Part shown: piece after piece, positions 11,805-19,251 of the stretch
How positions within the stretch are numbered: position 1 is the stretch's first letter
Layout of the letters: the number at the start of each line of letters is the position of its first letter
IMG/VR virus record: IMGVR_UViG_3300010396_000052
Span: 1-53,003 of that record
Direction: 5' to 3' (one strand)
Length of the DNA stretch: 53,003 bases
DNA from: a virus
Lineage: Duplodnaviria > Caudoviricetes
The notes under the pieces: generated by a model
The model's database searches: none
What the model saw: the letters and a program-made list of their open reading frames with translations, nothing else
What the model was told of the DNA's origin: nothing
Made by a program: the position numbers and the translations under genes

Positions 11805-12011
11805 ATGGCAACTAGCGTAGTTATTAAAAATTCAAACGTCCGAAACTATCTAAAGATTGTGTCACAGGTCCCGGATACCAACAAGGTTGGTGTTAAGGTG
11901 GCTGGCAAGTGGAAGGATTCGGGCGCGGATAAGTTTGTTCCTCCGGGAGAGGTAGCTGAGATCTGGGTAGCAGCAGAACAGCGCTTTCTCATCGAGGAAA
12001 TGCCGACGTAA
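11805..12011 (+). CDS. Hypothetical protein
   Basis: Small ORF between TerL and portal; TAATG coupling to the portal gene. Confidence 0.65.
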   Translation: MATSVVIKNSNVRNYLKIVSQVPDTNKVGVKVAGKWKDSGADKFVPPGEVAEIWVAAEQRFLIEEMPT

Positions 12012-14320
12012 TGGATCGAACTCCGCCGAATCTATCTCCTCCAGACAATGAGACCTTAATCCAGCCGGATAAGGAGAATCTCATTGATCCAGAGGAGCTA
12101 CTCTCTCGTGTACGAGCAAGATACGATGATGGAGTAGGGGCGTTTGAGGAAAATCGGAGAATGCACTCCGAAGACCTCAATTTCGTCTATAATTCGGAGG
12201 CGATGGGTCAATGGGACCCAGTTGTTCTAGAAGCTCGTAGAGGCAAGCCCTGCTATACATTCAATAGGGTACTTGGACCTGTTAACTTAGTAGTTGCAGA
12301 TATGCGGCAGACCAGACCTGATATCAAGGTCCGGCCGGCATCCAAAGCAGCTAGCGAAGCAGTAGCGGATATCTTTGAAGGATTGATCCGGAGTATCGAC
12401 CAAGCCTCTAGAGCATCAGTTATTTATAAGAACCAGTTCAAGTTCGCTGTAGCTGGTGGATTTGGAGCTTGGCGAATCCTGCCGGAATATGCAGGAGAAG
12501 ATACCTTCGATCAGGTGCTTAGGATCAGGGATATCCCCAATCCTCAGACTGTGATTTGGGATCCAGAGTGCAGCGATGCCTGCGCCGGTGATGCGATGTG
12601 GTGCATCATTGGGGATCGTATCTCCAAAGAGAAGTACCGGACCTTATACCCGGATGCAGATTCAGAAAGCGCATTCCAGATCTCCCGCGACTCCTATGGT
12701 TGGTTTACCGACAAGGAAGTTCGCGTAGTCGAGTACATGGAACGTGTGCCGTTCAAGAAGATGATTGCGCTCTTGGACGATGGTCGAGTCGTAGATTACG
12801 ATTCTAAGACTAAGGCAGCAGCTGAACATATGGCTGATGCCCCCAATTCTCCCAAGATTATCAGCACTCGTGAAGTCCTTAAGTGGAGAGTAATGTGGTG
12901 TAAAGTGGATGGCGGACAACTATTAGAAGGCCCCATTTACTACGATTGGAAGCGTATTCCAGTTGTCCGAGTTCCCGGCCGATATATCAATATTGAAGGC
13001 CGTAAGAAGCTTCAATCCTTGGTGCGTCACACCAAAGATGCCCAGAGAGACTACAACACGATGCGGTCAGCAATGATCGAACGTGCTGCGATGATACCGA
13101 AAGCGCCCTACCTAGTTACAGAAACTATGGTTAAGGGCTATGAGTCCGAATGGGCTCAATCGAACACTTCTCCTCGTCCGTACCTGCCGTTTAATGTAGA
13201 TCCCAAGGCCAGTGAAATGGGCCGCGGGGGTCCAGAACGTGTCCCGCCTATTGACGTTCCTCAAGGCTCTATTGCCTTGGTTGAGCAGTCGGCGCAGGAC
13301 ATTCAGGCTACTATTGGATACTTCGATCCCGCAATGGGCAACGCGGAGGATATGAACCGCGTCTCGGGTAAGGCTCTCGTTCAACATACACGTCGTTCTG
13401 ACCTAAGCTCCTTCGAGTTCATCGACGGCTTAGGGGATGCCTTACAGCTTACCGGGGAAATGGAACTTGATATGATTCCCACCATTTATGTGGGAGAGCG
13501 TATTGAGCGCATTGTCAGCGGGGATGATATTGAGAAACTAATCACCATCAACCAGCAACAGGATGATGGCCAGATTGTTAATGATTTAAAAGCTGGTGCT
13601 TACGATTGTTCGGTTAATATCGGACCTAGCTACCAGACGGCACGTCAGGAAACCCTCCAGACCCTCATTGATGCGGCTGGAACTATACCGATGATTGCCC
13701 AAGTGGCTCCGGATCTCATTGCCAAGAATATTGATTCCCCGGATGCAGATGAACTGTCTCGTAGACTTCGTATCCCTCTAATCCATAATGGGATCATTAA
13801 GCCTACTGAGGAAGAGGCCAAGAATATGCCTCCTCCGCCTCCGCCTGATCCCCTCCAGCAGGCTGAGACAGAGCGTATGCAGGCTCTAGCCAAGCGTGAT
13901 GGCGCTAATGCTATTCTTGCTCAGAATGAGGTTCAGAACCTCCCACTTAAGAATAACAAGTTACTGTATGAGACCGCAGGGAAGCACTTAGATAACCTAA
14001 AGACTGGGGCTGATATGGGCAACTCTCAGGCTGCTGCACAAGCGGAAGCCCAGCAGGCCCAGCAGGAAGCCCAACAGAGTGCCCAGCAGCATCAACAGGA
14101 TATGGCTCAACAGCAGTCCGAAGGTGCTCAAGGTCTAGCTCAACAGACTGTCCAAGGCGCGATGGATCTCCATCAAGCCAATCAGCAACACAATGCTGAA
14201 ATGACTCGTACTGAACAGAAACACAAACAAGCAATGCAGCATGCCGAAGAGAAGCATGCTCAAGCTCTCAAACATGCCAAAGCCTTAGCTGCGGCAAAGC
14301 CTAAATCCACTTCTAAATAA
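12011..14320 (+). CDS. Portal protein, P22 gp1-like
   Basis: GQW, RPDIKVRP, GGFGAWR, LVRHTKDAQRDYN, SGKAL and YDCSVNIGPSYQTARQE motifs; Gln-rich C-terminal coiled coil. Confidence 0.93.
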   Translation: MDRTPPNLSPPDNETLIQPDKENLIDPEELLSRVRARYDDGVGAFEENRRMHSEDLNFVYNSEAMGQWDPVVLEARRGKPCYTFNRVLGPVNLVVADMRQTRPDIKVRPASKAASEAVADIFEGLIRSIDQASRASVIYKNQFKFAVAGGFGAWRILPEYAGEDTFDQVLRIRDIPNPQTVIWDPECSDACAGDAMWCIIGDRISKEKYRTLYPDADSESAFQISRDSYGWFTDKEVRVVEYMERVPFKKMIALLDDGRVVDYDSKTKAAAEHMADAPNSPKIISTREVLKWRVMWCKVDGGQLLEGPIYYDWKRIPVVRVPGRYINIEGRKKLQSLVRHTKDAQRDYNTMRSAMIERAAMIPKAPYLVTETMVKGYESEWAQSNTSPRPYLPFNVDPKASEMGRGGPERVPPIDVPQGSIALVEQSAQDIQATIGYFDPAMGNAEDMNRVSGKALVQHTRRSDLSSFEFIDGLGDALQLTGEMELDMIPTIYVGERIERIVSGDDIEKLITINQQQDDGQIVNDLKAGAYDCSVNIGPSYQTARQETLQTLIDAAGTIPMIAQVAPDLIAKNIDSPDADELSRRLRIPLIHNGIIKPTEEEAKNMPPPPPPDPLQQAETERMQALAKRDGANAILAQNEVQNLPLKNNKLLYETAGKHLDNLKTGADMGNSQAAAQAEAQQAQQEAQQSAQQHQQDMAQQQSEGAQGLAQQTVQGAMDLHQANQQHNAEMTRTEQKHKQAMQHAEEKHAQALKHAKALAAAKPKSTSK

Positions 14321-14362
14321 CCGTCCTCGTCAAGACGTTAACTCGACGTATTGGAGAAAGTA

Positions 14363-15373
14363 ATGGCTTTTACTCGTGAAGATCTGGCTGCCTATGAAGC
14401 GCAGCCTGTCGCTACCCCGGAGGCGTCAAGTCCGGAAACTGAAGCTGAGCCAGTTGTTGAAACTCAGCCTGAGGCCGAGGCATCGTCCACCACGGAAACT
14501 CAGACGGCGCAGACCGAACCTGCAAGTGACGGTTCTCAGGTCGAACAGGTAGAAGCGACCACTACCCCCGCTGAACTTGACAGCGAAACGCAACCCACTG
14601 AGGAAACTAATGACGGTTCTCCTCGCAAGGGCTCTGCTCAAGAACGCATTGAAGAGCTTGTTACTGAGCGCAATGCACTTAGGAAGTATGGAGAGTATCT
14701 CCTAGACCAGCTTAAGGTAAAGCCAGCACCGGCGGTTGAAGCCCCGGCTAAGGCTCCAGAGGAAGCGAAGTCTACTCCCCCGACCTTGGAGGAGCATAAC
14801 TACGATCCCGTTGCCTTTAATAAGGCTTTGGTTGAGTGGAATGATAAGGAGATTGATCGTCGAGTTGCAGCCAAAGTTCAGGAAGTTGAGGCTAAGCGCT
14901 CAGATCAGAATGTGCGTGAGGCTTTTGAATCTCGTACCAATGAGTTTCGTAAGCAGCATTCAGACTTTGATTTGATAGTGTCTAATCCTTCTCTCCCAGT
15001 TCTTGGGCAAGATGCAGCGATGGCGATTGTGAAATCTGAGAATGGCCCGGCCATCCTTTACCATCTAGCCAAAAATCCGGACCTTGCTGTGAGAATATCA
15101 CGCATGGACCCGGATATGAAGAAGATGGCACTAGGACGGGTTGAAGCTCAGATTACCGCCCCAGCACCTAAGCCTGTTGCTGTTAAGACACAAGAGACCA
15201 ATGTGAAAAGAACCGTTGCACAGGTACCTCCGCCGCCCCCGAAGCCAGTTTCGTCCACTGCTGCGCCCGTTAAGACCGGGCCTATGAATATGGATGAATT
15301 TGTGGCTCAGGAGCGAGCGAAGAAACTCGCAGAAAAAGAGGCGCGACAACGCCTCAGGAAATCTCTGCGCTAG
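14363..15373 (+). CDS. Scaffolding protein
   Basis: Between portal and coat; acidic disordered N-terminus, coiled coil, SENGPAILYHLAKNP motif, basic C-terminus. Confidence 0.85.
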   Translation: MAFTREDLAAYEAQPVATPEASSPETEAEPVVETQPEAEASSTTETQTAQTEPASDGSQVEQVEATTTPAELDSETQPTEETNDGSPRKGSAQERIEELVTERNALRKYGEYLLDQLKVKPAPAVEAPAKAPEEAKSTPPTLEEHNYDPVAFNKALVEWNDKEIDRRVAAKVQEVEAKRSDQNVREAFESRTNEFRKQHSDFDLIVSNPSLPVLGQDAAMAIVKSENGPAILYHLAKNPDLAVRISRMDPDMKKMALGRVEAQITAPAPKPVAVKTQETNVKRTVAQVPPPPPKPVSSTAAPVKTGPMNMDEFVAQERAKKLAEKEARQRLRKSLR

Positions 15374-15398
15374 CAGTTAGAAAAGGTTAATAAGCCAA

Positions 15399-16661
15399 AT
15401 GGCTAATTCTCTCTTAACGGCACAGTGGGTCGCCCGCAAGGCACTCATCCTGTTGCACGCTAAGTCTAATATGACGGGTCGCACGAACCGCGACTACCAG
15501 TCGCTACTCCCCGGTCCAATTCAGGGTGTTGCACTAGGTCAGGTTCTTAGCATCCGGCTGCCGTTCCAGTACGTGGGACGTAAGGGTAACTTGATGAACG
15601 CTGAAAACAGCGTCCAGCGCTTTACTCAGTTGAACGTAAGTAATCAGCGTGGTGTTGATATCAACTTCACCAGCGTTGAGCGTGCAATGCAGTTGAATAA
15701 CTTCGAGGAGCAGGTGCTTGAGCCAGCAATGGCCAAGGTCGCTGCTCTGCTTGAGATCGACGTGGCCTCTCTGGTCAATCAGGTCCCGAAATTTGTTGGC
15801 ACGACCAGCACTTCAGTCTCTTTCAGCACGGTCCTCCAGTCCGAGCGGTTCTTGACGGAAGCTCTGGCCCCCGAAGACGACAAGCGTACGCTTACGGCAA
15901 ATCCGCAGGCTTCGTACGAGTTCGTCCTCGACAACAAGGCGCTGTTCAATCCTACGACCGAGATCTCCGATCAGTGGTTGGAGGGTGTCATTGCGGATAA
16001 GGTGGCGGGATACGTCGTCTTCCGTAATACGAAGCTGCCGGCTCATACCATTGGTGTCGTGACGGGTTCTACCCCGACCGTATCCGGTGCTGGGCAGGGC
16101 AATAGCGGCTTCGGCAACGCTTTCATCAGTTCAACGAGCCTCGTGACCAGCGGCTGGGCTTCTGGTGCTACTACCCTTCAGGCTGGAGACGTAATCACGA
16201 TCTCCAACGTGAATGATGTGGACCCGGAATCTAAGGTATCGCTTGGTCGTCTGAAGCAGTTCGTCGTGAATAGCACGGTCTCTGACACTGCCGGTGGAAT
16301 CACCGTCTCTATCAGTCCGGGCATTATGTACGGCGGATCGTATCAGAATGTGGACTCCCAGCCTGCGGCTGCTGCAACTATCACCGTGATGGGTGACGTG
16401 CCGGCCAACGTCTCGGGTGTGACGGTTAAGCAGTCTCTGGCTTGGTATCGCGACGCAATCGTGTTTGCCAATCCTCCGATGCTCGACCTGTCGCAGGTTG
16501 TCAAGTTTACCGCTCAGGAGAGCTTCGAGGGCTACAACCTTCGCTTTGCTCAACAGTGGGATGTGAACAGTGACCTGCTCCCGGCTCGCCTAGACACCAT
16601 TTCCGGTGAAACTCTTTCGTACCCCGAACTCGCGGTCCGAATGATTCATAAGCCGGCTTAA
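15399..16661 (+). CDS. Major capsid protein, P22 gp5-like
   Basis: MANSLLT, NRDY, IRLP, LEPAM, AGDVITI and RLD...G...YPELAVR motifs. Confidence 0.92.
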   Translation: MANSLLTAQWVARKALILLHAKSNMTGRTNRDYQSLLPGPIQGVALGQVLSIRLPFQYVGRKGNLMNAENSVQRFTQLNVSNQRGVDINFTSVERAMQLNNFEEQVLEPAMAKVAALLEIDVASLVNQVPKFVGTTSTSVSFSTVLQSERFLTEALAPEDDKRTLTANPQASYEFVLDNKALFNPTTEISDQWLEGVIADKVAGYVVFRNTKLPAHTIGVVTGSTPTVSGAGQGNSGFGNAFISSTSLVTSGWASGATTLQAGDVITISNVNDVDPESKVSLGRLKQFVVNSTVSDTAGGITVSISPGIMYGGSYQNVDSQPAAAATITVMGDVPANVSGVTVKQSLAWYRDAIVFANPPMLDLSQVVKFTAQESFEGYNLRFAQQWDVNSDLLPARLDTISGETLSYPELAVRMIHKPA

Positions 16662-16677
16662 TAGGAGGTAACTAACT

Positions 16678-16926
16678 ATGGCTGTTAATCAGCTTGGTGA
16701 CGGAGGCACGGACGGCGTTCTAGTTGGCGACGTTGGAACCCAGATTGGGTTTTACGGTATCGGACCTGTTTTGCAGCAGTCTGGTACTGGTAATACCTCG
16801 ACGGGTGCCGCGGGTGCGACTAGCACGGTGTTCCTCAATACTACCTTTACGGGTGGTAGTGCGGGCACAGCCTACACGATTGGCGATATCGTCAAAGCGT
16901 TGAAGGCTTACGGTCTACTCAAGTAA
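16678..16926 (+). CDS. Small capsid-associated (cement/decoration-like) protein
   Basis: Follows the coat gene with a strong GGAGG RBS; IGFYG...IVKALKAYGLL pattern. Confidence 0.6.
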   Translation: MAVNQLGDGGTDGVLVGDVGTQIGFYGIGPVLQQSGTGNTSTGAAGATSTVFLNTTFTGGSAGTAYTIGDIVKALKAYGLLK

Positions 16927-16995
16927 ACCAAAAAACTCTTTTGGGGTGGAGTCTAAACACCCCTCCTAATTCTAATAAAGATAGGTGAGACTATA

Positions 16996-17682
16996 ATGGA
17001 GCTTGACGACTTCAAGCACGTGATGGTGGCAACGCCGTCGTATTCAGGGGATGTGTGCATGGACTTTACTTGGTCCTTGCTCCAATCCCAAATGTTGTGC
17101 CTAGGACATAAGATCCTACTGGACCTCGAATGGGTCCAAAACCTCTCAATCGTAGAGGCTGCTAGGAACTATCTCCTATACGTCTTTCTTAAGAAGACTA
17201 AGTATACCCATATCATGTTTATTGATGGGGACTTGGGTTGGCAACCGGACGCCATTCACCGAATGGTCGAGCGCCAAAAATACGTAATTGGCGGAGTCTA
17301 TCCTCGTAAGAATGATAAAGCGGAGTATCCGTATGTTCCACTGCAGGATCACACGGACGTGGCTTTAAGGCTTCCTACCGGCTTTATGCTGTGCGCTCGT
17401 ACCGCTATTGAAGCAGTCTGCGAAGACGCTCCGCGCTTCAAGATGCCATACGATGGTGAGATACACGAAGTCCCAAGAATCTTCGAGTTCAAAATTGATG
17501 GGGAACGGAACTTAGTATCTGAGGATTACGTATTCTCAGACAAGCTCCGGGATGAGGGATTTAGGTTATTCGTTGAGCCTAATATTAACTTTGTACACTC
17601 CGGCCGTAATGGTTGGAGAGGCAATCTAGATAAGCAAACCATACCAGCAGTGTGGGAAGCTATTCGGAGGCCAAATGTATAA
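16996..17682 (+). CDS. GT-A fold glycosyltransferase 1
   Basis: VATPSY, ARN, THIMFIDGD (DxD), SEDYVF and terminal HSG motifs. Confidence 0.85.
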   Translation: MELDDFKHVMVATPSYSGDVCMDFTWSLLQSQMLCLGHKILLDLEWVQNLSIVEAARNYLLYVFLKKTKYTHIMFIDGDLGWQPDAIHRMVERQKYVIGGVYPRKNDKAEYPYVPLQDHTDVALRLPTGFMLCARTAIEAVCEDAPRFKMPYDGEIHEVPRIFEFKIDGERNLVSEDYVFSDKLRDEGFRLFVEPNINFVHSGRNGWRGNLDKQTIPAVWEAIRRPNV

Positions 17683-18187
17683 AGAATTACTCTTGGGGTG
17701 CGGCAACTCTCGTGAGAAGCGCATTGGACGATCCGGGGCAGTGTCTTGGGTTAATCTTACTACTCTGGACGTGGATCCTGATACTAAGCCCAATGTACTC
17801 CATGACCTGAATGTACATCCTCTCCCTTTTGCTGACAACAGCTTCGATGAGCTACATGCTTATGAAGTTCTTGAACACATTGGCAAGCAAGGGGATTGGC
17901 GGGCGTTTTTTGAAGAATTTACCGACTATTGGCGTATCCTTAAGCCCAACGGAATACTTTGCGCAACTTGTCCTTCTCGGAATAGTGTGTGGGCTTGGGG
18001 TGATCCCGGCCATGTACGAATTATTCAGCCTGAAACACTTATCTTCCTTTCCCAAAAAGCCTACGAACTTGGAATAGGCAAGACTCCGATTACCGATTAC
18101 CGACATATTTATAAAGCCGACTTTGAGCCTCTTCAAGGGCACGATGATGGCGAAAACTTTAGATTCATACTCAAGGCAGTTAAATAG
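17675..18187 (+). CDS. Class I SAM-dependent methyltransferase
   Basis: LLLGCG motif I, LPFADNSFD, VLEHI, WRILKPNG, DPGH. Confidence 0.88.
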   Translation: MYKELLLGCGNSREKRIGRSGAVSWVNLTTLDVDPDTKPNVLHDLNVHPLPFADNSFDELHAYEVLEHIGKQGDWRAFFEEFTDYWRILKPNGILCATCPSRNSVWAWGDPGHVRIIQPETLIFLSQKAYELGIGKTPITDYRHIYKADFEPLQGHDDGENFRFILKAVK

Positions 18188-18214
18188 GCTATGCCAGAAC
18201 CATTCCCTACCATT

Positions 18215-18292
18215 CTGGGCGTAGCTCAGTCTGATTAGAGCGCCCGGCCCGGAACCGGGAGGCCGTGGGTTTGAATCCTACCGTCCAGACCA
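18215..18292 (+). tRNA. tRNA-Pro(CGG), non-canonical
   Basis: Full cloverleaf, C1-G72, A73, encoded CCA, anticodon loop CCCGGAA; carries C33, A37 and A19/U56. Confidence 0.9.
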
Positions 18293-18297
18293 AATTT

Positions 18298-18373
18298 GCG
18301 TTATAGCACGCGGGTCGTGCCGCCAGCCTTCCAAGCTGTGTAGATCAGGGTTCGATTCCCTAATGACGCTCCA
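18298..18373 (+). tRNA. tRNA-Gly(TCC), irregular
   Basis: GCG/CGC acceptor top, U73, CCA, anticodon loop CTTCCAA, T-loop TTCGATT; irregular D arm and junctions. Confidence 0.8.
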
Positions 18374-18377
18374 AACT

Positions 18378-18498
18378 TGCTCAGTCGGATATCTCACCCC
18401 GACTAGCACTAGGTAACGGAACCTAGAGTTAACCCGTCGGGACCGTGACTTTTCGCACCTTTTCAGAGCAAAAGCCTGCGCTTATTTGGTGAGATATG
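18378..18498 (+). ncRNA. Candidate cis-regulatory structured RNA (multi-hairpin, loop-RBS pseudoknot)
   Basis: Hairpin loop ATATCTCACC (18389-18398) is the exact complement of GGTGAGATAT (18488-18497), which covers the RBS and start of the next gene; further hairpins lie between. Confidence 0.6.
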
Positions 18499-19251
18499 TC
18501 TAAGCCTAAAGCTCATATAATAACAGCAACCCCCACTTATACTGGGGATGTCTGCTGCGATTACGCAAACTGCCTCTCTCTGGCTGGAATGCACTGTATT
18601 TTACGCAACGTGTGGATCGAGCCTCGCTTCGCAGCTGGGTTCTCCCTTGTAGAGTACGCCCGAAATTGGCTGGTAGCTGAGTTCCTTCAGAATAAGGCAG
18701 CAACCCACCTATTTTGGATAGATTCCGACCTCTTCTTCCAACCAGATGCCGTCTATAAGATGGTTGCGAGAGGAAAAGATGTAATTGCTGGTGTTTACTC
18801 AACTAAACACGAGACTAGCCCAGTATTCCCCTATACCGCACTCGGTCCAGTAGTGGACGGATTGCAGGAAGCTGAGAGGGTCCCCGGTGGATTCCTCTGT
18901 ATGACTAGGAAAGCCGTTGAAAAGGTCGTTTCGACCTGTGAATGGCACGAGATCGACCACAACGGGGAGCAACGAATGTCTCCGAGGTTCTTCGATTTGC
19001 GATTAGATGGGAAACACTTAGTCGGTGAAGACTACATAGCCTCCGAGCGGCTTCGGAAGGCTGGTTTCAAGATCTACGTTGAAACAGATATTTCTTTCAA
19101 GCATTATGGCCGCAAGGCTTGGAATGCGAATCTAGCTAAGACTCTCCAAAAAGAGAAAGAGCAGGGATTCGAGGGCCAAGGCAGCGATACCGCTTGGGAG
19201 AAAAATGCAAAAGTGGCAGAGAATCCTGCCTTACTTGATAAACTTTACTAG
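18496..19251 (+). CDS. GT-A fold glycosyltransferase 2 (paralogue of 16996-17682)
   Basis: ITATPTY.GDVC.D, ARN, THLFWIDSD, GEDY, HYG. Confidence 0.85.
   Translation: MSKPKAHIITATPTYTGDVCCDYANCLSLAGMHCILRNVWIEPRFAAGFSLVEYARNWLVAEFLQNKAATHLFWIDSDLFFQPDAVYKMVARGKDVIAGVYSTKHETSPVFPYTALGPVVDGLQEAERVPGGFLCMTRKAVEKVVSTCEWHEIDHNGEQRMSPRFFDLRLDGKHLVGEDYIASERLRKAGFKIYVETDISFKHYGRKAWNANLAKTLQKEKEQGFEGQGSDTAWEKNAKVAENPALLDKLY

Follow-up and report, generated by a model that had tools for sequence, protein, structure and literature searches.

A structured leader upstream of a putative phage glycosyltransferase gene, with a hairpin loop complementary to the ribosome-binding site and an apparent copy of a widespread phage RNA motif

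Results

Gene order at the locus

The window analysed here is a whole IMG/VR virus record (53,003 bases; completeness estimate 89), with P22-like portal, scaffold and coat genes at 12011-16661. The coat gene is followed on its 3′ side by an 82-aa ORF; a first glycosyltransferase gene, GT1 (16996-17682; phrog_1574); a methyltransferase gene (17675-18187); tRNA-Pro(CGG) (18215-18292, + strand); tRNA-Gly(UCC) (18298-18373, + strand); a gap of 122 nt; and GT2 (18496-19251, + strand; phrog_1574), which encodes a putative GT-A-fold glycosyltransferase of 251 aa. Both tRNA genes were called by ARAGORN; the Rfam tRNA model gives 57.1 bits for tRNA-Pro and does not report tRNA-Gly, at which the single Rfam match is tRNA-Sec with 26.9 bits against a threshold of 47. 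GT2 can be assigned to the GT-A-fold glycosyltransferases weakly: its family has weak Pfam matches (Anp1 in 19 of 40 members, GT2-type in 2-4 of 40), a match to STIV A197 at E 0.093, and an invariant W-I-D-x-D motif.

The interval between the coat and head-tail adaptor genes holds inserted genes in the window (16678-19251) and in two other contigs (L002:1264-3756 and L153:65-3480, − strand). The inserted set comprises a conserved small ORF (81-82 aa, beginning MAVNQLGDG), a methyltransferase gene and one or two phrog_1574 glycosyltransferase genes; L153 also carries a 332-aa ORF whose end, in our own reading, resembles sugar-nucleotide epimerases/dehydratases. The inserted genes look like a virion-glycosylation cassette. 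A GC-rich hairpin (GGGGTG...CACCCC) follows the 82-aa ORF at 16927-16995 and is itself followed by the ribosome-binding site (RBS) of GT1; it may be a stability or termination element, and the terminator scan does not call it as a terminator.

DNA nearly identical to the window, or to parts of it, occurs in Logan contigs from three soil metagenome runs, for which no variant letters are listed inside the leader; no RNA run is among those listed. Among 50,697 deposited phage records we found no close DNA or protein relatives, only tRNA matches and glycosyltransferase matches of at most 27% identity; a search of genome contigs for relatives gave no match, and metagenome contigs returned the L002 contig again and one chance match in a high-GC gene (L033).

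Elements of the leader

The 122-nt leader spans 18374-18495, between tRNA-Gly and the GT2 start, and all of its elements lie on the + strand. P1 (hairpin 1; 18378-18408) begins 4 nt after tRNA-Gly; its arms, 18378-18388 and 18399-18408 (11 and 10 nt), leave one bulged C, and its loop ATATCTCACC (18389-18398) is a putative mimic of an anti-Shine-Dalgarno sequence, being the exact complement of 18488-18497. S1 (hairpin 2; 18409-18426) pairs CTAGGT with ACCTAG around the loop AACGGA, inside a 19-nt run that is identical in the relative L002. Four bases of the S1 loop, ACGG (18416-18419), form strand S2a, which pairs with strand S2b, CCGT (18443-18446), and the latter is followed directly by a conserved GAC, which ends at 18449. 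Between the two strands, in the long loop L3, a small hairpin P3 (CCC-GUC-GGG; 18433-18441) is possible; it is weak and was placed by eye, as was CCUC...GGGG at the P3 position of L002. P4 (hairpin 4; 18454-18480) pairs CGCA..CTTTT with AAAAG..TGCG across an internal loop and has the loop CAGAGC. The Shine-Dalgarno sequence (SD) GGTGAGAT and the ATG of GT2 occupy 18488-18498, with the ATG at 18496.

An earlier note on this DNA, made from the sequence alone, had described hairpins 1, 2 and 4, all of which are present as it placed them; its hairpin 3 (AGTTA/TGACT) has to be given up, as it is not kept in L002 and competes with the better supported S2 pairing. The note had also called the region an unannotated structured RNA, which it did not recognise as a known riboswitch or ribozyme, and Rfam 15 indeed reports nothing in the leader region beyond the tRNAs. 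The pairing of the S1 loop with CCGU, and the link to the widespread motif described below, were absent from it.

No promoter-like or terminator-like site was found on the + strand at 18374-18495. Several other candidate features of the leader were considered and set aside. GTGACA/TTGACA could be read as a −35 box; no consistent −10 box is apparent by eye, and the scan gives no site on the + strand. A leader peptide starting at GTG 18445 and ending in the SD was dropped because the single SD-like sequence, GGGA, stands only 2 nt from the GTG. An outer closing helix, P0, appears in single folds (CCAAA/UUUGG in the window, using the CCA of the tRNA; UAGGG/CCCUA in L002; AAUCGG/CCGAUU in L034), and is not upheld in the broad family, where own pairs score no better than mismatched ones (5.89 vs. 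6.09). Kissing between the P1 and P4 loops would involve just 3-5 nt, judged by eye.

Complementarity between the P1 loop and the GT2 ribosome-binding site

The SD and the AU of the GT2 start codon lie within the 10-nt sequence GGTGAGATAT (18488-18497), which is the exact reverse complement of the P1 loop, as the earlier note had claimed. The 10-mer is present exactly twice in the window, the two copies being each other's partners, and the duplex energy is −14.1 kcal/mol. With the RBS segment (−18 to +3) held fixed, the fraction of dinucleotide-shuffled leaders (107 nt; 3000 shuffles) with a complement of at least 10 nt is 0.0003. By our own arithmetic, 53 kb of sequence should contain about 7-8 perfect inverted repeats of 10 nt whose halves lie within 150 nt, so a 10-nt repeat alone is unremarkable; the weight rests on its placement, a hairpin loop against an RBS, and on its recurrence in relatives.

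The minimum-energy fold of the leader computed with RNAfold (−40.7 kcal/mol; z −2.40; matched or bettered by 4 of 200 shuffles) contains the loop:RBS helix as a long-range stem, with hairpin 1 opened. Two fold states compete in the window, one in which P1 is closed and one in which the loop:SD helix forms alongside CCCGAC:GUCGGG. Since RNAfold opens hairpin 1 to form the loop:RBS helix, and since a loop of 10 nt is unable to form 10 bp with its own stem closed, the full 10 bp and the intact hairpin are probably alternatives rather than parts of one pseudoknot. A nested-fold model, which excludes pseudoknots, puts the cost of opening the GT2 RBS at 9.1 kcal/mol, 16th among the 57 window genes; this is an ordinary value, and the model gives no unusual occlusion of this RBS relative to other genes of the window. 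Seven nucleotides of the P1 loop are also complementary to the SD of GT1, as previously noticed: GGTGAGA is present at 16984-16990 (+ strand).

GT2 leaders in relatives

Searches from GT2 returned nine viral loci with eight distinct sequences (GT2 identity 41-66%), L042 and L043 being counted as one as they are identical over the stretch compared. Four relatives carry a leader of the same layout (L002, L034, L038 and L040; GT2 orthologues 44-66% identical); in L039, L041 and L042/L043 the upstream gene abuts GT2 with no leader. The leaderless orthologues L041 and L042, whose starts could be placed, have other SDs, and the start in L039 is unclear. The comparison set is therefore five GT2 leaders, representing about four independent lineages. 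It had been suggested that tRNA processing creates the 5′ end of the leader; as a conserved feature this fails, ARAGORN finding no tRNA at the four homologous leader loci, and the tRNA next to the leader is incidental and specific to this phage.

The window and L002 leaders share identical runs of 19 nt and 11 nt, whereas over 753 nt of GT2 coding sequence the longest such run measures 11 nt and 42% of synonymous third positions are identical. Their P1 and P4 stems are written in different letters (in P1 both sides are changed), and the pairing is kept. The upper P1 stem, TCAGTCGG...CCGAC, is identical in the window and L040, and a hairpin with AGAG in its loop stands at the P4 position in all five leaders (loop CAGAGC in the window, CAGAGA in L040 and AGAGAGAA in L002).

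For each of the five leaders, it is the P1 loop that contains the longest Watson-Crick complement to the RBS segment. The loop/RBS pairs, with the chance that a random loop-sized piece does as well, are ATATCTCACC/GGTGAGATAT in the window (10 nt; 0.0000), CTCACCTC/GAGGTGAG in L040 (8 nt; 0.0000), CCCTCAC/GTGAGGG in L034 (7 nt; 0.001), CCTCAC/GTGAGG in L038 (6 nt; 0.008) and TTCTC/GAGAA in L002 (5 nt; 0.054); the L002 complement alone is not significant, and 0.91 of shuffled leaders do as well. By these comparisons the leader is conserved. The pairs share a core CUCAC:GUGAG with lineage-specific extensions and different flanking letters. When every loop is compared with every RBS in a 5 × 5 table, each of the five rows has its maximum at the own pair, with ties in three: L002 (with the window RBS), L038 (with three others) and L034 (whose loop is the same as that of L038).

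The P1 loop resembles the 3′ tail of 16S rRNA (...CUCACC...), and so it can pair with a strong SD; the L040 loop contains CUCACCUCC, which is also close to that tail. An SD of the GGTGAGA type precedes two genes of the L040 contig, in one case with no P1, and therefore looks like an ordinary strong SD; the loop match may be one that could fit any such strong SD. In two relatives a small local hairpin presents the SD GUGAG(G) in its loop (L038:2475-2494, ATCACT/AGTGAT; L034:1354-1370, TCTTCT/GGAAGA), so that contact with the P1 loop could there be loop-to-loop kissing.

A putative pseudoknot in the core

In each of the five leaders, 4-5 nt of the S1 loop pair with the segment immediately 5′ of the invariant GAC: ACGG/CCGT in the window and L002, ACGTC/GACGT in L038, ACGCC/GGCGT in L040 and AAGC/GCTT in L034. 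The S1 stems across the leaders are CTAGGT/ACCTAG, GCGT/ACGC, CCGT/GCGG and GCGC/GCGC, with 6 bp in the window and L002 and 4 bp in L038, L040 and L034. Together S1 and S2 would give an H-type pseudoknot, followed by P4 with its AGAG loop. The pseudoknot is firm just where S1 is strong, that is, in these five leaders; in the broad family described next, S1 reaches at least 4 bp in 58 of the 96 instances listed, vs. 17, 42 and 44 of 96 in slid controls, which is weak.

A widespread S2-GAC-P4(GAGAGA) motif

The module in the L034, L038 and L040 leaders belongs, in canonical form, to a phage motif that is widespread. Three short blocks of the L038 and L040 sequences (GTGAACG, CGTGAC and AGAGAC) were combined into a search pattern, which matched at least 120 stretches of viral contigs, with 96 unique instances among the matches listed. 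Pair 4 of S2 is canonical in 89 of these 96 (CG 56, UA 20, UG 6, AU 4, GC 3) and pair 5 in 67; P4 has at least four contiguous pairs in 73, and about 13 instances with 0-2 pairs look like chance matches. The near-invariant blocks of the family are imposed partly by the search pattern, so that conservation is overstated.

A covariance model, R1, was built from 38 listed instances; its building set is 96.3% paired, a figure that is partly so by construction because these instances were chosen for a 5-bp P4. Outside the building set, 59 R1 matches in 52 other loci have 95.8% of cells paired, compared with 15-52% in slid controls, and 0 of 500 shuffles reach the observed covariation; these loci come from the same pattern scan, and their alignment was fitted to R1. 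The two helices of the motif, S2 and P4, covary strongly. R1 scores L040 at 1.5e-16 (51.1 bits), L034 at 2e-13 (42.6 bits) and L038 at 5.5e-12 (38.7 bits), L034 being found though it lies outside the search pattern.

Rfam 15 assigns the canonical copies to no family: 12 loci gave no match at gathering thresholds, raising the limit to E 5-10 brought none either, and the Rfam covariance models of known self-cleaving ribozymes give no match. A literature search with motif strings returned unrelated papers only. The portion of PMC10690425 that was available holds no match to the motif, and its supplementary tables, with more than 10,000 candidate phage RNAs, may list it; what was available of a preprint (10.64898/2026.09.22.753630) concerns an array of a different kind, tied to a reverse transcriptase.

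The core of the window appears to be a diverged copy of this motif. It carries the S2 pairing that defines the family (ACGnn with nnCGU directly before GAC) as ACGG at 18416-18419 and CCGT at 18443-18446. A canonical P4 is a hairpin of 4-6 bp starting 1-2 nt after GAC, with the loop GAGAGA, whereas that of the window is a longer, interrupted stem starting 4 nt after GAC, with the loop CAGAGC. R1 misses the window and L002 leaders (best scores 2.9 and 1.6 bits, respectively). We call the window core a diverged copy because it occupies the same position as the canonical cores, directly upstream of the GT2 orthologues of L034, L038 and L040; because its upper P1 stem is as in L040; because the order of elements is the same and the loops are similar (CAGAGC vs. 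CAGAGA); and because a structural descriptor gives one match in the window, at 18416-18474, vs. 0.05 per shuffled window, this descriptor having been relaxed after the window was seen and recovering 61 of the 120 listed family instances. Membership thus rests on synteny, manual alignment and a post hoc descriptor.

Genomic context of the motif

A same-strand ORF ends within 300 nt upstream of the motif in 80 of 96 listed instances, at distances of −4 to 287 nt, and in 59 of 96 the start of an ORF with 70 codons or more lies no further than 80 nt downstream. The distance to the start codon has its mode at 19-24 nt, with another class at 8 nt without an SD. In 6 of 97 listed instances a tRNA begins 3-9 nt beyond P4; none of the 97 has a tRNA within 80 nt upstream of the motif. 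The downstream genes are mutually unrelated and encode, among others, portal, head-tail adaptor, SSB, ParB-like/methyltransferase and glycosyltransferase-methyltransferase fusion proteins. The fusion is a 410-aa protein (L121:111-1343, − strand), with a phrog_1574 glycosyltransferase and a methyltransferase-like domain, that stands 32 nt downstream of a canonical copy. Starts at 8 nt from P4 with no SD between occur at L084:957-1030, L092:7320-7392 (− strand), L063:3205-3275 and L072:704-770; they belong to conserved ORFs (portal, a 115-aa family), and the sole SD-like letters there are GGAG at the top of P4.

Five viral records have 1-4 clustered copies each, and two contigs have tandem arrays: L154 with 4-5 units in one 480-nt spacer (13000-13490) and L115 with four (2300-2690). 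In both arrays the stem sequences differ between units, and some units have no S2 half. In L080, a record of 132,754 bases classed as a provirus, motif copies stand among 31 tRNA genes and a tmRNA gene in 12.5 kb.

In one subfamily (32-34 of the 120 loci listed) the motif is flanked by a small capsid-module gene on one side and a 144-aa gene on the other, and the P1 loop CCCUCACC is constant in about 30 loci of this capsid-to-adaptor arrangement, with an SD complement of 4-5 nt. L034 and L038 are members in which GT2 is inserted after the motif: they keep the loop CCCUCACC, and their SD reads GUGAGG(G), with a complement of 6-7 nt. The loop:SD match of the GT2 lineage is accordingly longer (6-10 nt; 5 nt in L002) than that of the parent subfamily. 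Another canonical copy in the L040 contig, this one lacking P1, stands between a small capsid-module ORF and a methyltransferase gene, and ACCC-U-run-GAGGUGAG follows both copies in that contig, the one before the methyltransferase gene and the one before GT2. Across the broad family the SD lies outside the conserved fold, and the complement between own loop and RBS (mean 3.33) is no better than that of mismatched pairs (3.09). A comparison of flanking proteins up to about 7 kb on either side found none common to the 120 listed loci beyond the structural genes of the one subfamily (at most 34 of 120).

Discussion

The pairings described here are present in the sequence and reappear, spelt differently, in relatives, and across the broad family there is covariation in the core helices; the comparison supports the view that the leader is an unannotated structured RNA under selection. 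We infer that attenuation of GT2 translation in cis would be the simplest account. Specifically, we propose that the leader is a conserved folded RNA in the phage late mRNA whose P1 loop would restrain GT2 translation in cis, and we give this reading, the most likely of those considered, a probability of about 0.45, slightly short of an even chance. The P1 loop would compete with the ribosome for the SD of GT2, either through a loop-to-SD pseudoknot of ~6-7 bp or through an alternative long-range helix of 10 bp; the compact core between P1 and the SD, formed by S1, S2, GAC and P4 and sitting directly 5′ of ribosome-binding sites or tRNAs, would bring loop and SD close together; and GT2 translation would be held down relative to the neighbouring structural genes. 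Several results weigh against this reading: R1 misses the window and L002 leaders, the L002 complement is short, own loop:RBS pairs do no better than mismatched ones in the broad family, the SD GAGGUGAG also follows a motif copy lacking P1, and the nested-fold cost of opening the GT2 RBS is ordinary.

The match between loop and RBS could instead have no function of its own, with P1 retained in some other role (a hairpin for RNA stability behind the capsid genes, for instance) and its C/U-rich loop simply fitting purine-rich SDs. The constancy of CCCUCACC in about 30 capsid-to-adaptor loci where just 4-5 nt complement the SD, the likeness of own and mismatched pairs in the broad set, the complement of just 5 nt in L002 and the occurrence of the SD GAGGUGAG after a motif copy without P1 all fit such an account; we nevertheless consider it quite unlikely, as the best complement falls in the loop in five of five leaders, extending over 7-10 nt in three with lineage-specific flanking bases. 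Another reading, which we hold to be doubtful, makes the loop-SD match secondary and lets the widespread core define or protect RNA ends, as a self-cleaving ribozyme, as an RNase site cut 3′ of P4, or as a 5′ stabiliser or insulator that travels with the RBS. The 3′ edge of the motif stands at a short distance from the next start codon (59 of 96 listed instances) or tRNA (6 of 97), whereas the upstream stop codon stands anywhere from −4 to 287 nt away; the downstream genes are mutually unrelated; L154 and L115 have arrays of 4-5 units; and L040 repeats the motif with ACCC-U-run-GAGGUGAG before two genes, like a portable unit. About 20 near-invariant bases in ~60 nt together with a pseudoknot, as seen here, are typical of small ribozymes. 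However, no Rfam ribozyme model matches even at E up to 5-10, the near-invariance comes partly from the search pattern, and the tight spacing to start codons could reflect compact phage genomes. The core, especially P4, may also be the binding site of a phage or host protein, either a translational repressor or activator or an antitermination factor. A covarying stem with a constant loop is the usual signature of loop-specific protein recognition, and P4 combines a covarying stem with a constant GAGAGA loop and constant flanks (GAC-A, A-C); clustering of 1-4 copies per viral record, tandem copies and a resemblance to boxB (5-bp stem, purine loop) point the same way. This has a slender chance in our estimate: beyond the structural genes of one subfamily no protein family is common to the flanks, up to about 7 kb on either side, of the 120 listed loci, and the extra conserved S2 helix exceeds the needs of a simple hairpin operator.

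The earlier note had favoured a switch sensing, for example, a nucleotide sugar or SAM, to which nothing in our analysis points. In such a riboswitch a small molecule bound by the pseudoknot core would decide if the SD is masked by the P1 loop. For an aptamer, an H-type pseudoknot that has conserved junction bases and adjoins an SD is a common layout; the window has two competing fold states (P1 closed, or the loop:SD helix with CCCGAC:GUCGGG), and glycosyltransferase and methyltransferase genes lie alongside. Yet canonical cores precede portal, adaptor, SSB and ParB-like genes as well as tRNAs, and therefore show no single metabolite theme; arrays of 4-5 units are unlike known riboswitches; the SD lies outside the conserved fold in the broad family; and no Rfam riboswitch matches. 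A ligand-sensing riboswitch is accordingly the least favoured reading and very improbable. The placement of the core, its arrays and its tRNA neighbours fit a processing, stabilising or insulating module, or a protein site, at least as well as a sensor. A bolder and, we think, unlikely proposal is that the core represents a new catalytic or sensing class of RNA in many soil phages, which would cut 3′ of P4 to free mRNAs or tRNAs, or act as an aptamer for a global signal, the glycosyltransferase lineage having gained the anti-SD hairpin as an expression platform.

If attenuation of GT2 translation in cis is true, the masking of an RBS by a mimic of the 16S tail ~90 nt upstream, retained in diverged phages, would offer a simple means of setting the level of an enzyme within a late structural operon. 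The motif itself, which no Rfam family represents, combines very strong covariation with common occurrence in contigs of uncultivated (soil-type) phages; should it process RNA, recruit ribosomes or bind a factor, it would be a general part of phage gene expression not yet described, and it could serve as a portable 5′ module.

Sequestration of the SD by an upstream anti-SD is known from the operator pseudoknot of E. coli rpsO/S15, the leader pseudoknot of T4 gene 32, and the preQ1-II and SAM-II riboswitches. The GT2 leader is like them in that an upstream pyrimidine-rich segment pairs with the SD and start, a pseudoknot lies beside the RBS, and the proposed effect is on translation in cis; it differs in having no Rfam match and in carrying its anti-SD ~90 nt upstream, in a separate hairpin loop. 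In the mom gene of phage Mu, a translation-inhibiting stem is opened by the Com protein; there, as we propose here, the RBS of a phage modification-enzyme gene is masked by leader structure in a late transcript, although the structure of the GT2 leader is different. The lambda N-boxB pair consists of an antitermination factor and an RNA hairpin. P4 recalls the boxB of lambda and P22 nut sites in its short covarying stem, its constant purine-rich loop and the conserved box just 5′ of it; unlike boxB, it has a loop of 6 nt (GAGAGA) rather than a GNRA-like pentaloop, it is accompanied by the extra S2 helix, and the motif sites lie in late/structural regions and beside tRNAs. With the pistol, hatchet, twister-sister and HDV-like "theta" ribozymes the motif shares a size of ~60 nt, a pseudoknotted fold, many constant bases and a phage intergenic location, sometimes beside tRNAs or in tandem; it matches no Rfam model, and in our own reading its helix order, S1a-S2a-S1b-S2b-P4, does not fit the double pseudoknot of HDV. 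Finally, Cluster K mycobacteriophages have start-associated sequences just upstream of several start codons, and these resemble the motif as a conserved element repeated upstream of the start codons of unrelated genes; they are short boxes without reported covarying helices, whereas two helices covary in the motif described here.
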